Virus record (IMG/VR): IMGVR_UViG_3300033273_000550
Span: 1-64,000 of that record
DNA length: 64,000 nt
From: a virus
Reading direction: 5' to 3' (one strand)
Positions within the stretch are counted from its first letter, which is position 1, and each line of letters opens with the position of its first letter. Shown one piece after another: positions 37,053-42,085 of the stretch. Under the pieces are notes generated by a model. It had not been told where the DNA came from, did no database searches, and saw nothing but the letters and a program-made list of their open reading frames with translations. The translations under genes were made by a program, and so were the position numbers.

Positions 37053-37389
37053 TGTATGTAAGCAGTATCGTCCAGATTTTTGGTTTAAGACTGCTAAGAA
37101 AAAGACTTGTAGAAGTTGTGAAAGAACTTGGTGGAATATGATGCTTAGAATGTTAGTTAAGCAACGTAAACTTTCACCAGCAGAAAGAATTGGAAATAGA
37201 TTAGGTTACATGGGTACAGCTTTTATTATGATGTCACCTTATTTACTTCCTTATGATAATTTAGGAGCTTATACTTACCTAATTGGTGCACTCTTATCAC
37301 TTCCTCAAGTTTGGCTAGCTAAACAATGGAACTTGGTAATAGTTAACTTTAATTTATTAATTGGATACGGAGCTTACTTATGGAATTAA
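37039..37389 (+). CDS. Zn-finger plus membrane protein
   Basis: CNVC/CRSC pairs then about three hydrophobic segments. Confidence 0.65.
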   Translation: MRKCNVCKQYRPDFWFKTAKKKTCRSCERTWWNMMLRMLVKQRKLSPAERIGNRLGYMGTAFIMMSPYLLPYDNLGAYTYLIGALLSLPQVWLAKQWNLVIVNFNLLIGYGAYLWN

Positions 37390-37403
37390 AAGAAAAAAAT
37401 AAT

Positions 37404-37434
37404 TTGGAGATTGTAAAAAAGATTCTTAAATTAA
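37404..37434 (+). promoter_or_regulatory. Possible host-type promoter upstream of the Hint gene
   Basis: TTG-N20-TAAATTAA; TATTTAT also at 37542. Confidence 0.4.
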
Positions 37435-37570
37435 AAGAACTACCTCCTTCTCCGGAGATAGTAAAACAGATACAAAAATTGCAACAGCAACTCTAACTAA
37501 AAAGAAATATCGTATAGGTTTTTTTTATTTAATTCCTTTGATATTTATATAAAACATTAGATCTAAAAAT

Positions 37571-39832
37571 ATGAAAGGAACGTTATTCTCAGCAGATTTT
37601 GCTAAAGATAGAAATAATAATTTGAGGTTATTAGAGCTTAATACCGATACATCTTTTACAAGCGGTGCATTAAGCAACGTTAATTATTCAGAGCTATTTA
37701 ACGTAATTTCTTCTTCTAATATTTCAGAAGTACACGTTATATACAAAGACGTATATCACGGAACTTTTGTAAATGATCTATCAGCCTCTATTGCTGCATC
37801 AGATCAAATCTCAGTTACATTTAATAAGTATAAAGAGGATATCAATACTATTTACCCAACCACAGTAGAAGATGCTTCTAATAAATTTATTTTAAGATGC
37901 GCTTATGATGAATCGGCTATCTTCGATTCTACTTATTGTAAAGAGAAAGACGAAGTTCATAAATTATTTCATGATAACAACGATACTGGATCAGTAAGTG
38001 AGATTTACTTAACAGGCTCAGATGGACTTTACGACAGTCTTTATAGAAATGTTAACAGTGCCCTAGTTCCTGATTTCGTAGTTAAAAATTTAGATGATGT
38101 TCATGAATCACTTTCTTTCTATAAAGTAAAAGGGACTGGATCAGCAGTTGAAAATATAGATGCTTTTGTGAGTGGGTTACCTTCTTCAAGTATGGTAATA
38201 AATTATTACAATGACGATACAGAAACAGTTCATAAAGGATACAGAGCTTTCAATATTATTTACGGATCAGAATTAGACCTTATTAACTTAGCAAACATCG
38301 AAGTATCAGCAGTTTTAGATAAACCAACAGCACTCGCTTATGATAATGCTACTGTTAATAATCTAATTAACAATAAGCACTACTACGAATTTACTTCTAA
38401 CCACCCTACTTTTGATGGATATGGAGGAATTTTCGAATCAGATGAAATAGTAGATGTAAACGGAGATGCAGTTGCTATTGAAGATACAGTTGTTGGAAAT
38501 TCTTACCGATCTACTTTTATTTCTGGTTCACCTGATTCGGATAACATCGAAGTATTTACTCAATGGACATACCCTGGTAGTTCACTACCTTCAGGTTCTT
38601 ATGTTACTTCATCGGTATTAGTAAATAAGATTTCTCAAGACCTTCCTAATAACCTTATCTATCATATCCAAACAGCTGATAGTTCTTCTTTTAGAGTAAG
38701 TGCTAACCAGCATATGTTAGTCTTTGATTCAGGATCAAATCAACTTCAGTATAAGGATATTCACCACATAGATATTAATAATGATAAGTTACTTTCTATT
38801 TCTGGAAGTACAGTTGATATTGCTTCTAAAGATATTGAAGTCTTGGATGGTGACTATAAAACTTATATCCTGGATATGGAATCAGAAGATACGTTTATTC
38901 TTTATAATGGAGATTTAAATGTTAAGATTATTACCCACAACTGCTTTCCAGCAGGTACTAAAATTTTATTAGAAGACGGTTCATATAAGAATATAGAAGA
39001 AATTACAACTCAAGATGTTCTTTTAACATATAATAATGATAAAAAAGAATACGGACTTGGTAAAGTAGGTAGCATCAGGGTATCTACACAATCTAAACTA
39101 ATTAAGATTAATACTGAAAAAGAAGAACTTAAATCTACTCCTCGTCACAAAATGTTTACATCAGATGGATGGAAAGCAGCTGAAGAAGTAGCCGTCGGGG
39201 ATTCTCTCTTTAATAAACAAGGTGAATTAGTAGAGGTATTAAATATAGAAGTATTAGAAGGTGAGTTTGAAGTTTATCACCTAATTGACGTAAAAGATAA
39301 TCATACTTACTTTGCAGAAGATTTATTAGTTCATAACCTTAAAGCTGTTCCTACTTGTTTCTCTGCTGGTACTCGTATTACATTATCAAACCACGATGAA
39401 AAATTTATCGAAGATATTGTTGTTGGTGATGAAGTATTAGGATGGGATGGTGAGAAATTAGTTCCTGCTAAAGTAATTGCTGTCGATAGTAGACACACAG
39501 TTGGTGACTCTGCTGAAGGCTGTAAAACATTAGGAGAAGAACCATCATTATTCACAATAAATGAAATTGGAATTGAATTTACTGCTGAACACCCTTTCTA
39601 TACCAAAGATGGATGGAAGTCTTTAGTACCAGATGTTAGACAAGAGCCATTCTTATCACAGCAAGAACCTAAGAGTTTAAATGTTGGTGATTATGTACTA
39701 AACAATGGTGAGTGGGAAGAAATCAAAGAGATTAGAGTAGTTCGTTCAAATCCTGAAGAAAAAGTTTACAATATAACAGTTGAAGGTGTTCACTCTTATG
39801 TTGCTGATGGAGTTGTTGTTCATAACAAATAA
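37571..39832 (+). CDS. Circularly permuted ATP-grasp-like domain fused to three tandem Hint domains
   Basis: N-terminal DF...LRLLELNTD; Hint1 G286..HN457 (no Cys1); Hint2 C458..TPRH..HN589; LKAVPT; Hint3 C596..TAEH..HN752-K. Confidence 0.85.
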   Translation: MKGTLFSADFAKDRNNNLRLLELNTDTSFTSGALSNVNYSELFNVISSSNISEVHVIYKDVYHGTFVNDLSASIAASDQISVTFNKYKEDINTIYPTTVEDASNKFILRCAYDESAIFDSTYCKEKDEVHKLFHDNNDTGSVSEIYLTGSDGLYDSLYRNVNSALVPDFVVKNLDDVHESLSFYKVKGTGSAVENIDAFVSGLPSSSMVINYYNDDTETVHKGYRAFNIIYGSELDLINLANIEVSAVLDKPTALAYDNATVNNLINNKHYYEFTSNHPTFDGYGGIFESDEIVDVNGDAVAIEDTVVGNSYRSTFISGSPDSDNIEVFTQWTYPGSSLPSGSYVTSSVLVNKISQDLPNNLIYHIQTADSSSFRVSANQHMLVFDSGSNQLQYKDIHHIDINNDKLLSISGSTVDIASKDIEVLDGDYKTYILDMESEDTFILYNGDLNVKIITHNCFPAGTKILLEDGSYKNIEEITTQDVLLTYNNDKKEYGLGKVGSIRVSTQSKLIKINTEKEELKSTPRHKMFTSDGWKAAEEVAVGDSLFNKQGELVEVLNIEVLEGEFEVYHLIDVKDNHTYFAEDLLVHNLKAVPTCFSAGTRITLSNHDEKFIEDIVVGDEVLGWDGEKLVPAKVIAVDSRHTVGDSAEGCKTLGEEPSLFTINEIGIEFTAEHPFYTKDGWKSLVPDVRQEPFLSQQEPKSLNVGDYVLNNGEWEEIKEIRVVRSNPEEKVYNITVEGVHSYVADGVVVHNK

Positions 39833-39847
39833 TAAAAAGGATATATT

Positions 39848-39988
39848 ATGGCAATAGTATACAAAACATTTACAAGAGAACAAATGGAGTCTAGAAGCAT
39901 TACTAACGTAAGTGCTGCACAAAAGACTTCTATGCAAAATACTATTAGTAACTTTATTACTTATTTTAAAGCTAAACATTTATCATAA
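39848..39988 (+). CDS. 46-aa peptide, not in ORF track
   Basis: MAIVYKTFTREQMESRSITNVSAAQKTSMQNTISNFITYFKAKHLS; fills the gap exactly. Confidence 0.65.
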   Translation: MAIVYKTFTREQMESRSITNVSAAQKTSMQNTISNFITYFKAKHLS

Positions 39989-39997
39989 AAAGATAAA

Positions 39998-40525
39998 ATG
40001 AGTTATGTGCTTCTTTCCGAAGAAGAATGTCAATACGTAAAGAGTTTTTTTAGCGAAGATACTGCATTAGACGGTAAAGATCCTCTAGTACTTGATATAG
40101 ATTCTGAAAATACTATTTCGATTAAGCGAAAAGCTAGTGCGAAATACTTAGATGTTAGTGACCCTGAGCTTATTAGCTTCCTTATCGATAAACTCTCTCC
40201 TTTAAAAATTAAATCTATATCTAATAACACTGCTAAACTGGTAAGATATAGTCAAGGAGATTATTTCGCAAAGCATACAGACTTCTACAAGTACGGAAAC
40301 GGAGCTAGCTATAAAACACTAGTTATTCAACTATCTAACCCAGATGACTATAAAGGAGGAAATTTGGTTGTAAAAGACGTTCCTCAAAATAGGGAGTTAG
40401 GTTCTTTCTCTCTATTTAACAGTTCGGATATACACGAAGTTACATTGATTACCGAGGGTGAAAGATATTCTCTTACTTTATTCTTGGTTCATAACGATTT
40501 TATTCATAATTTATCTTTAATATGA
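39998..40525 (+). CDS. 2OG-Fe(II) oxygenase (prolyl-hydroxylase/PKHD type)
   Basis: RY..GD.F..HTD, DYKGG.L and HEV..I..G.RYSL motifs. Confidence 0.92.
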   Translation: MSYVLLSEEECQYVKSFFSEDTALDGKDPLVLDIDSENTISIKRKASAKYLDVSDPELISFLIDKLSPLKIKSISNNTAKLVRYSQGDYFAKHTDFYKYGNGASYKTLVIQLSNPDDYKGGNLVVKDVPQNRELGSFSLFNSSDIHEVTLITEGERYSLTLFLVHNDFIHNLSLI

Positions 40526-40917
40526 CATTAATTAGCCCAGATAAGTTAGAAGTAAAACTCTCTCCAATTCACGGATATGGAGTATTCGCTACTGAAGATA
40601 TTTTAAGAGGAGAAATTATAGAAGAGTGTTACGTAATTAAAATACCTGTCAAAAGAGGAGCAATGCCTCACTTATTTGCCGACTATAAATTTAAATGGAT
40701 AAATGAAAATGACGAAATAGAAGAAGTTCTACCTTTAGGATTCGGTTGCATTTATAATCATTCTAAGAATAATAACGCTCTTTGGAGACAGATTACTGAT
40801 AAAAAAGTAATTCAATTCTATGCGTTGAAAGATATTAAGAAAGGAGAAGAGATATGTCATTTCTACGGAGGAGATAAGTATTGGGATGCTAAAGCTAAAA
40901 TTCAAGAATTATCATGA
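40522..40917 (+). CDS. SET-domain lysine methyltransferase
   Basis: HG.GVFA, YNHS..NN and DI.KGEEI...Y motifs. Confidence 0.93.
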   Translation: MTLISPDKLEVKLSPIHGYGVFATEDILRGEIIEECYVIKIPVKRGAMPHLFADYKFKWINENDEIEEVLPLGFGCIYNHSKNNNALWRQITDKKVIQFYALKDIKKGEEICHFYGGDKYWDAKAKIQELS

Positions 40918-41495
40918 ACCTTTTTGATATAGCTTATACTAAAACTAATTTTAATCTTGACTGGAATAATATAAAACCTATTGCAGAAGAGTCTGTTAGT
41001 ATAGATAAACAGCATCACTTAGAAGAGCAAGGAGTAACATCATTTGAGAATACTGATATTCCAACAGAAGATTTAACTGAATTAGATTCTTATTATAACT
41101 TTATAATGCCTGAGGTTAGTTCTTTTGTTTTCGATACTTTAGGTTATTCTAGAGAGTATGAATTAGTAAAGCAGAATGCCTGGTTTTCTAAGTACCTTGA
41201 TAAAGGATTCGTTCGTCAACATTCACATGAAGAATCTGTAGCAGTAGCTTGTCTATATATTGAACTTCCATCTAATGCAGGTAACATAGAATTTAAACAC
41301 CCATATTATAATCACAGAAAAGATTATATCGTGAGTGATGATAGTTGGTTATGGAAAGAAGTAAAAGTAAAACAGAATGACGTTATCATTTTCGACTCAG
41401 CTATTTGGCACAGGTCCCAACCTAACTTAAGTGGCAAACAAAGATGGACTCTTACCACTAATTTTGGATTAAAAACTAAAGAAAAGCTTTTTTAA
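40914..41495 (+). CDS. 2OG-Fe(II) oxygenase (HxH type)
   Basis: W...Y.......HSH, G.I.F and H...PN....R..L..N motifs. Confidence 0.88.
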   Translation: MNLFDIAYTKTNFNLDWNNIKPIAEESVSIDKQHHLEEQGVTSFENTDIPTEDLTELDSYYNFIMPEVSSFVFDTLGYSREYELVKQNAWFSKYLDKGFVRQHSHEESVAVACLYIELPSNAGNIEFKHPYYNHRKDYIVSDDSWLWKEVKVKQNDVIIFDSAIWHRSQPNLSGKQRWTLTTNFGLKTKEKLF

Positions 41496-41537
41496 TCGAA
41501 GAGTTTTTCTTATATTATATATTATAAAACAAGTGTT

Positions 41538-41726
41538 ATGGAGAAGTTATATTTTTTACCTACTTACAAATTAAACCACTCAACTATTGATACAGTTATA
41601 CCTGGATCACATATTAGAGTTGGTGATTATTATTACGAACAACTTTCTAGAAGACCTAGAAATAGGAGAGTAAAACAATCCTTACTTAGTATGGATGAAA
41701 AAACTCAAATTCTTATTTTTAACTAA
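41538..41726 (+). CDS. Hypothetical protein
   Basis: TAATG-coupled to the next gene. Confidence 0.55.
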   Translation: MEKLYFLPTYKLNHSTIDTVIPGSHIRVGDYYYEQLSRRPRNRRVKQSLLSMDEKTQILIFN

Positions 41727-42085
41727 TGAAAGAACTTAACTGGACTTATATAATTATAGGAGCCGGTTTTACTTTTCTTGCTCAATTTGGTGCTTGGGTT
41801 CAGCATAATATGCAATTCAAGTATCCGGAACTAGACTATAAATGGTGGGGCTGGTATGCTTTAGGTATTCCTCTTACCTTTCTATTTCTTTTAGCTACAA
41901 AATATAATGTAGAAGGGTATGGAGGAAGTATCTGGGCAGGAAGGTTTGTAGGTTTTGCAATAGGTATTGCCATCTATGCAGTCTGTACTTGGATTGTATT
42001 TAAAGAGCCAATATCTACTAAAATTTTAGTTCAATTAATTTTATGTACAGCAATATTAGCTGTTCAAGCATTTTGGAAATCATAA
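41726..42085 (+). CDS. Four-TM DMT/SMR-like membrane protein
   Basis: Four hydrophobic helices with FKEPIS loop. Confidence 0.7.
   Translation: MKELNWTYIIIGAGFTFLAQFGAWVQHNMQFKYPELDYKWWGWYALGIPLTFLFLLATKYNVEGYGGSIWAGRFVGFAIGIAIYAVCTWIVFKEPISTKILVQLILCTAILAVQAFWKS

Follow-up and report, generated by a model that had tools for sequence, protein, structure and literature searches.

The DNA examined in this study is a window of 64,000 nucleotides that corresponds to the first 64 kb of an IMG/VR virus record (IMGVR_UViG_3300033273_000550), which is 191,416 bp in length, carries a CheckV rating of complete, and represents the genome of an uncultured marine phage. One gene in this window, which is present in a single copy in the whole record, encodes a protein of 753 amino acids (aa) wherein a circularly permuted ATP-grasp domain is followed by three tandem Hint domains. 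An earlier interpretation made without database searches (the sequence-only reading) had proposed that this ligase-Hint protein processes itself, and that its last two Hint domains bracket and release a hexapeptide. The gene is composed of the following features.

37571-39832, + strand: ligase-Hint open reading frame (ORF), an open frame of 753 aa
37571..38425, + strand: minimal circularly permuted ATP-grasp (carboxylate-amine ligase) domain, aa 1-285, assigned by fold and motif
38426..38941, + strand: half-disabled Hint (Hint1), aa 286-457, assigned by hhalign against Hint2, AlphaFold and Foldseek
38942..39337, + strand: intact mini-Hint of the bacterial intein-like (BIL) type at site 1 (Hint2), aa 458-589, with Cys1 (C458), T523xxH526 and H588-N589; it abuts the terminal His-Asn of Hint1
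39338-39355, + strand: LKAVPT linker, aa 590-595, the C-terminal tail segment that separates the two intact Hints
39356..39826, + strand: intact BIL-type mini-Hint at site 2 (Hint3), aa 596-752, with Cys1 (C596), T671xxH674 and H751-N752; it abuts the terminal Lys
39827..39832, + strand: K753, the terminal Lys of the tail, and the stop codon

An ATP-grasp domain followed by three Hint domains

The motifs on which the sequence-only reading was based are all present at the positions it gave, both in the N-terminal region (SADFAKD at 7-13, LLELNTDT at 20-27, FVVK at 169-172 and VINY at 209-212) and in the Hint region (SANQ at 377-380, THN-C at 455-458, LVHN-LKAVPT-CF at 586-597 and VVHNK at 749-753, where hyphens mark unit boundaries). 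An alignment of 56 homologues reveals that H456, N457, C458, T523, H526, H588, N589, C596, H674 and N752 are invariant, and the invariance of these catalytic positions is well beyond chance expectation.

The likeness of the N-terminal domain to permuted ATP-grasp enzymes of the glutathionylspermidine/glutathione-synthetase type, as originally suggested by its motifs, is real at the level of both fold and motif. An AlphaFold model of aa 1-285 built on 123 family sequences has a predicted local distance difference test (pLDDT) score of 95.1. Foldseek searches with this model return glutathione synthetases, YjfC/YgiC, E. coli GspS, Mfla_0391 and Cp1B with probabilities of 0.93-1.00, despite template modeling (TM) scores that are low (0.37-0.46). 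Residues 1-280 of the model match residues 310-609 of GspS, and the metal-binding beta-hairpin is located at the N-terminus of the ATP-grasp fold, as it is in the circularly permuted class. In addition, a local profile alignment of 19 columns (E-value 0.017) pairs D9 through S28 with D318 through A336 of E. coli GspS, whose sequence in this region reads R316-M-D318-F ... E330-Y-N332-A-D. Residues D9, E22 and N24 of the N-terminal hairpin are thereby aligned with D318, E330 and N332 of GspS, in the same register as that of the structural alignment. We take these three GspS residues to be metal ligands, and D9, E22 and N24 are accordingly termed putative Mg ligands here; in the family, E22 is invariant and both D9 and N24 are at least 90% conserved. 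When the N-domain profile is compared globally to E. coli GspS by hhalign, no alignment results, such that only the local motif alignment is obtained; a Pfam scan of the protein with E-values up to 1 returns Hint models only, with no match to GSP_synth or CP_ATPgrasp; and no PHROG matches the core of the protein (aa 1-457). The nearest structural relatives (glutathione synthetase, GspS, YgiC/YjfC and Cp1B) couple a peptide or small-acid carboxylate to an amine, with YgiC/YjfC being peptide-spermidine ligases (PMC12568646).

Residues 286-457 constitute a genuine Hint fold from which the N-terminal half of the chemistry is gone. Gly (G286) replaces Cys1 and S..Q (S377..Q380) replaces the TxxH motif of this unit, but the block F/G residues are kept, with D435, E437, D440, H456 and N457 being invariant. 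Residues 1-457 yield no match in Pfam or PDB sequence searches, and the assignment of Hint1 comes instead from profile comparison and structure modeling. When the profile of aa 280-457 is compared to that of Hint2 by hhalign, the two align with a probability of 91.8% (E-value 7e-7) in a register that places G286 opposite Cys1 and S377..Q380 opposite TxxH. An AlphaFold model of aa 281-460 has a pLDDT of 92, and its top Foldseek matches are the BIL domains 2lwy and 6y75 at an E-value of 3e-9 (TM-score of 0.85 on target for 2lwy). The second of these is Tetrahymena BIL2 (6y75/6tmm), and after it come DnaB and DnaE inteins and Hedgehog. AlphaFold modeling thus returned the anticipated ATP-grasp and Hint folds for the two parts of the core, and the description of Hint1 as lacking Cys1 and TxxH while retaining a terminal His-Asn is upheld. 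The terminal His-Asn is kept in nearly all family members, with three exceptions that retain the Asn, which suggests that the bond after N457 might be cut or activated in every member.

Hint2 and Hint3 are identified by independent Pfam and PDB matches (PT-HINT, E-value 1.3e-15; Intein_splicing, 2.5e-13; BIL domain 2lwy, 1e-5). Of these, PT-HINT and 2lwy, which is from Clostridium thermocellum, are matched by Hint2, and the Pfam matches of Hint3 are Intein_splicing and Hom_end_hint. The two units align with each other by hhalign with a probability of 100%. Therefore, all three of the Hint units originally proposed are present. The intact Hints keep Cys1, TxxH and His-Asn throughout the 56 aligned homologues (T671 and H751 of Hint3 being conserved in at least 90%), and such retention is expected if selection favors self-removal. 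Neither unit is followed by Cys, Ser or Thr, as the +1 residue is Leu590 after Hint2 and Lys753 after Hint3. In the family, the residue after the site-1 Hint can be F, Y, R, L, K, I, W, V, A or Q, and occasionally S. The absence of a +1 nucleophile makes the intact units BIL-like rather than true inteins, in agreement with the sequence-only reading. BIL domains lack a +1 nucleophile and mainly undergo N- and C-cleavage (PMC7664689), and those of the A type terminate in His-Asn (PMC7765530). However, BIL2 of Tetrahymena can splice via an isopeptide formed with a Lys epsilon-amine (PMC8616854).

A variant of the last-position Hint that is not found in the window protein is carried by 24 homologues (P0060, P0064, P0122-P0124, P0135, P0143, P0152, P0159, P0160, P0163, P0168 and others). 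This Hint lacks the terminal His-Asn and ends with ..VSGLGDNxxLNxx[FY][KQ]RQ.. plus ~10 residues, an extension of ~25 aa. It could be a Hedgehog-like form capable of N-cleavage only, or a form like B-type BILs.

Gain and loss of Hint cassettes in the family

A word-indexed search identified more than 785 clusters (90% identity) with the same architecture as the window protein at lengths of 730-765 aa, a count that is a lower bound and that pertains to this length band only. An exhaustive HMMER search with aa 1-457 yielded 250 cluster representatives, and for each of the 150 listed, the match begins at the core N-terminus. Among these listed matches, full-length proteins fall into size classes of ~460-510, 600-670, 730-790 and 900-935 aa, corresponding to 0, 1, 2 and 3 intact Hints, respectively, as counted with hidden Markov models built from this ligase-Hint family. 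The core is followed by a short tail, by a Cys-rich tail, or by one to three intact Hints that occupy two fixed locations. Site 1 is directly after the His-Asn of the core, either with no spacer or with a spacer of A, DA, AP, SP, NP or GP, whereas site 2 immediately precedes a Lys that is C-terminal or nearly so. In one-Hint proteins, either site can be occupied alone.

This census bears on the possibility that Hint1 is a class 2 intein that uses Cys458 as its +1 nucleophile to splice the ligase domain onto the downstream part of the protein. In the window protein, the His-Asn ending at N457 does abut Cys458, and the KlbA class 2 intein is among the fold matches of Hint1. However, about half of the homologues carry Ala, Asp-Ala or x-Pro between the His-Asn and the Cys, and the +1 position of Hint-less homologues is occupied by Lys, Ala, Pro, Ile, Tyr or Asn. 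Hint1 also belongs to the core in every member, including those that are otherwise Hint-less. We therefore rejected a class 2 intein identity for Hint1 on the basis of the A, DA, AP, SP and GP spacers and the tails of Hint-less members, and consider this mechanism to be extremely improbable.

The intact Hints have been gained or lost repeatedly. A tree built from 132 cores requires no fewer than 26 changes in Hint number. For example, one sister pair with 100% support unites a three-Hint protein, whose virtual tail once the Hints are conceptually removed is AP+RF+K+KL, with a Hint-less protein whose tail is PAPPPKL, and the two tails are collinear apart from the Hints. The clade of the window protein (47 rows) is two-Hint throughout. 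A tree of the Hints themselves places 71 of the 73 site-1 Hints in one half, with the other half containing 52 of the 62 last-site Hints along with 18 of the 22 Hints from proteins occupied only at site 2. The site-1 and last-site Hints are thus two old and mostly separate site-specific lineages, as is the case with intein alleles. No homing endonuclease is present in any member seen.

These data speak directly to the proposed hexapeptide. The sequence-only reading held that the two intact Hints release LKAVPT as a thioester that would be cyclized or transferred to a target, thereby serving a peptide-tagging or maturation system. The chemistry is possible, since Cys596 could form a thioester at T595 and N589 could free L590, and ciliate BUBL loci provide a precedent for a payload flanked by Hints (PMC8616854). 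Moreover, linkers in the subclade of the window protein follow a loose pattern of a hydrophobic residue, Lys, two variable residues, Pro, and Thr or Ser. However, inter-Hint linkers of the family range from 1 to 36 aa (mode 6), and 114 distinct sequences are found among 136 two-Hint proteins. Linker preferences are weak, with a hydrophobic or basic residue at +1, Lys or Ser at +2, and a small residue at the end. Many homologues have one or no intact Hint and hence no bracketed peptide, and Hint number differs even between close relatives. The expectation that Hint number might vary was borne out (0 to 3, flipping repeatedly on the core tree), but the peptide between the Hints proved to be variable in both length and sequence, which is the outcome that had been named beforehand as speaking against a peptide product. 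LKAVPT is a variable linker rather than a hidden peptide product, and we regard the release of a functional hexapeptide thioester as very unlikely. Consequently, the ATP-grasp, triple-Hint and BIL-type assignments of the sequence-only reading stand, but its hexapeptide product does not.

The feature of the tail that does persist is a Lys residue. After conceptual removal of the Hints, tails have a median length of 7-8 aa in the zero-, one- and two-Hint classes, and a Lys is present among the last five tail residues in 13 of 13 Hint-less, 38 of 41 one-Hint and 136 of 136 two-Hint proteins. In all 136 two-Hint homologues, Lys directly follows the last Hint. At site 1, the +2 residue after the Hint is Lys in 60 and Ser in 52 of 134 cases, and three flank combinations predominate: x-Lys follows the Hint when no spacer precedes it (62), x-Ser when the spacer is Ala (50), and Arg when the spacer is x-Pro (~20). 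The +2 residue and the spacer preceding the site-1 Hint vary together (Lys with none, Ser with Ala), with 112 of 113 cases being concordant. This pattern suggests that the flanks and the Hint are coupled, although the covariation derives from only 4-5 independent changes (sign test p 0.125). To evaluate whether a cassette moves together with its flanks, changes of flank type were counted on both trees, and 3-8 are required on the Hint tree versus 4-5 on the core tree.

Such characteristics could indicate that the Hints have a function of their own, whereby a C-terminal thioester created on the core or on the tail, as in Hedgehog or BUBL BIL2, is captured by a Lys amine to yield an isopeptide product without consuming ATP. 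The capturing residue might be the invariant +1 Lys, the linker Lys at +2, or a Lys in a different protein. The best structural neighbors of these Hints include Tetrahymena BIL2, a domain that splices through a Lys isopeptide (PMC8616854), and the Lys frequencies given above, the covarying flanks and the persistence of the cassettes without an endonuclease are all consistent with this possibility. However, the core, the tail Lys and the small downstream ORF described below are also present in Hint-less and one-Hint homologues, and therefore the function of the family does not need the cassettes. Likewise, because the tail Lys is conserved without Hints, the +1 Lys is explained without invoking catalysis. 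Given also that the covariation reflects so few independent events, we consider this mechanism doubtful, albeit the most credible of the alternatives.

Distant homologues differ in their tails. In some of them, such as P0241, P0243, P0246, P0254, P0260, P0262, P0266, P0199, P0213, P0239 and P0258, the tail is a Cys-rich stretch (30-66 residues) in which CxxC pairs recur and which resembles a zinc ribbon or knottin. This segment is located either at the end of the protein or between or before Hints, usually with a Lys still near its end. A further tail type, found on some cores of the family (P0212, P0242, P0244 and P0264), is an extension of 75-155 aa that is not a Hint and that terminates in ..Y.K[IL]DV.[FH]K.I[KN].

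A small partner ORF and the likely role of the core

The genes that immediately follow the ligase-Hint gene are as follows.

39848-39988, + strand: 46-aa partner ORF, which starts 15 nt past the stop codon of the ligase-Hint gene and has AAGGA upstream
39998..41495, + strand: 2-oxoglutarate (2OG)-Fe(II) oxygenase (PF13640), SET domain gene and second 2OG-Fe(II) oxygenase (PF13759), assigned by Pfam

The partner ORF is the only near-universal neighbor of the core. Of 154 fetched loci, 152 have an ORF of 43-55 codons at a distance of 1-66 nt downstream (63 distinct sequences), including four loci where the core is Hint-less. The encoded proteins conserve a YK toward the N-terminus, a Ser/Thr-rich middle, and a C-terminal helix (F..yfk.kH.) that ends with KHS, KHL or AHS, although a subset has other ends (ASI, SVE and AAL). 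The partner protein yields no Pfam or PHROG match and nothing credible in the protein atlas. Conservation of both the tail Lys and the partner ORF points to some importance of the tail and of the partner for the ligase.

We consider it reasonably probable, as an account of the entire system, that the protein is a phage-specific two-domain core whose tail carries removable Hint cassettes and which operates with the small partner. The core consists of the permuted ATP-grasp domain (1-285) and the nucleophile-less Hint (286-457), followed by a short Lys-bearing tail (LKAVPT plus K in the window protein) that is interrupted at two fixed sites by BIL-type mini-Hint cassettes. Each cassette is expected to remove itself post-translationally, by forming a Cys1 thioester at its N-junction and by Asn cyclization at its C-junction. 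Removal would mostly proceed by cleavage, as in BILs, possibly with some amine-mediated ligation, and would leave the same working core as that of homologues that never carried cassettes. LKAVPT and Lys would then be by-products, or might be rejoined to form a short tail. The other products envisioned previously, free Lys and a core whose C-terminus is activated, might chemically be released as well. By analogy with its structural relatives, the core may use ATP to activate a carboxylate, on either a peptide or a small acid, for coupling to an amine, presumably working together with the 46-aa protein encoded just downstream. Of this account, the folds, the conserved residues, the distribution of architectures, the turnover of Hints and the association with the partner ORF are observed, and the chemistry is inferred throughout.

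It is also conceivable that the core, its Lys-bearing tail and the conserved partner together form an undescribed phage machine for tagging proteins or peptides. In this scheme, the ligase would join the C-terminus of the partner, or another carboxylate, to its own tail Lys, the His-Asn of the half-disabled Hint would activate or release the conjugate by Asn cyclization, and the BIL cassettes would rejoin the tail via a Lys amine in the manner of BUBL BIL2. If true, a single polypeptide would unite the chemistry of ATP-grasp enzymes with that of Hints. Consistent with tagging are the presence of the small ORF in nearly all loci, the conservation of its extreme C-terminus (KHS, KHL, AHS), the conservation of the tail Lys in all architecture classes, the activation of peptide or small-acid carboxylates by structural relatives (PMC12568646), and the retention of the His-Asn even in Hint-less members. 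However, an interaction between core and partner is hypothetical, some partners end with ASI, SVE or AAL, and the tail is otherwise unconserved. We therefore view tagging as unlikely, both for the ATP-dependent ligation step and for the complete machine.

Several observations weigh against the explanation that we favor, namely a core enzyme with removable cassettes and a small partner. With no Pfam ATP-grasp match, ligase activity rests on the fold and the 19-column motif alignment. Sequence by itself does not separate cleavage, splicing and inactivity of the Hints. The cassettes lack an endonuclease, yet most members retain them and the 47-row clade keeps them stably, which may point to a benefit rather than to neutrality. 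Similarly, the invariant +1 Lys and the covarying flanks hint that the flanks participate in the chemistry. Finally, if the His-Asn of the core severs the tail, then conservation of the tail Lys would be left unexplained.

The oxygenase, SET and oxygenase genes are tightly packed, with overlapping start and stop codons, and are loosely linked to the core: they are enriched downstream but not constant. Within a distance of three genes, an oxygenase lies downstream at 33 of 54 distinct loci versus upstream at 14 of 50, and a SET gene does so at 20 of 54 versus 0 of 50. The 2OG oxygenase family is multi-copy in these phages, and the oxygenases of cyanophage dioxygenase arrays are likewise multi-copy (PMC2938197). 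Overall, the ligase-Hint gene is surrounded by genes for accessory enzymes (DUF932, a methyltransferase, the two 2OG-Fe(II) oxygenases, the SET domain protein and a ferredoxin-reductase-like protein), in a window where every gene is on the + strand and G+C content is ~33%. A scan of positions 37200-41800 for promoters and terminators gave counts not above those of shuffled sequence, and inspection of the C-termini of ORFs in the window revealed no end-tag shared by neighboring enzymes. Elsewhere in the window are baseplate genes, a gene for a GroEL-like chaperonin (1046-2695, + strand; PHROG 5725, E-value 9e-166), and a block of glycosyltransferase and aminotransferase genes at ~19.9-31 kb.

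Distribution, significance and comparison with known systems

Members of this family are seen only in viruses, are without annotation, and are abundant in aquatic viromes, where they reside on contigs of up to 326 kb. Look-alikes of the core in the protein atlas are all viral 'hypothetical protein' clusters of 453-668 aa. No relative was found by a pattern-based scan of limited sensitivity covering one genome per GTDB species, and blastn and tblastn searches of 50,697 isolated-phage records revealed no core homologue, the only matches being of Hint3 to helicase inteins of Vibrio phages. Full-text literature searches for ATP-grasp together with BIL or Hint returned no account of such a fusion, with one amidoligase review falling outside their coverage. 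We conclude that the system is an undescribed, virus-only variant in which a permuted ATP-grasp domain and a half-disabled Hint are accompanied by removable BIL cassettes and by a small partner.

The protein would join ATP-grasp amide ligation with Hint thioester formation and Asn cyclization, two chemistries that are not known together. The natural series of zero to three tandem mini-Hints, which lack a +1 nucleophile and have minimal flanks, should be of interest for studies of Hint and intein evolution and for protein engineering. Furthermore, the invariant His-Asn on a nucleophile-less Hint, the tail Lys and the 46-aa partner provide handles on the role of the enzyme in infection.

Among known ligases, the GspS-type enzymes are those to which the N-terminal domain is likened. 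However, the phage domain is only 285 aa in length, and its match to GspS 310-609 implies that ~100 N-terminal residues of the synthetase domain are missing. It is also fused to a Hint and lacks a Pfam match. A comparison with graspetide-type RiPP systems, which pair an ATP-grasp ligase with a precursor peptide bearing a conserved Thr/Ser/Lys and Asp/Glu core motif, points both ways. A conserved small ORF is linked to the ligase here, but what it conserves is a YK, a C-terminal helix and a KH-x end rather than a Thr/Asp core, and the ligase groups with permuted GspS instead of RimK/MdnC.

Among Hint proteins, class 1 inteins such as the DnaB and DnaE mini-inteins share with the cassettes their fold, Cys1, TxxH and His-Asn, their site-specific lineages, and their presence/absence polymorphism. 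Unlike these inteins, the cassettes have neither a +1 nucleophile nor a homing endonuclease, and they are inserted into an unconserved tail rather than into a conserved active-site motif. Hints of the Hedgehog/Hog type, which form only the N-terminal thioester, lack a terminal Asn and carry a C-terminal extension for sterol recognition, differ in that both intact Hints of the window protein end with His-Asn, followed by only 6 residues and 1 residue, respectively. The BUBL1 BIL2 domain of Tetrahymena thermophila (6y75/6tmm) is the second-best neighbor by structure and by sequence. In BUBL loci, Hints flank a payload, and BIL2 splices without a +1 nucleophile via a Lys isopeptide (PMC8616854), which sets a precedent for the conserved Lys having a role. 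However, the BUBL payloads are folded ubiquitin-like domains, compared to 6 aa in the window protein and 1-36 variable residues in its homologues, and no ATP-grasp domain is present. A-type BILs are represented by 2lwy and PT-HINT, with 2lwy being the best PDB match of these Hints by both sequence and structure. The A-type BILs and the cassettes share a mini-Hint fold, Cys1, TxxH and His-Asn, the lack of a +1 Cys, Ser or Thr, and placement within a variable part of the host protein. They differ in that A-type BILs belong to secreted or toxin proteins of bacteria, whereas those described here are found in phage proteins, where they are arranged in tandem at two fixed sites of a ~8-residue tail behind a constant nucleophile-less Hint, and where the last of them always precedes a Lys.

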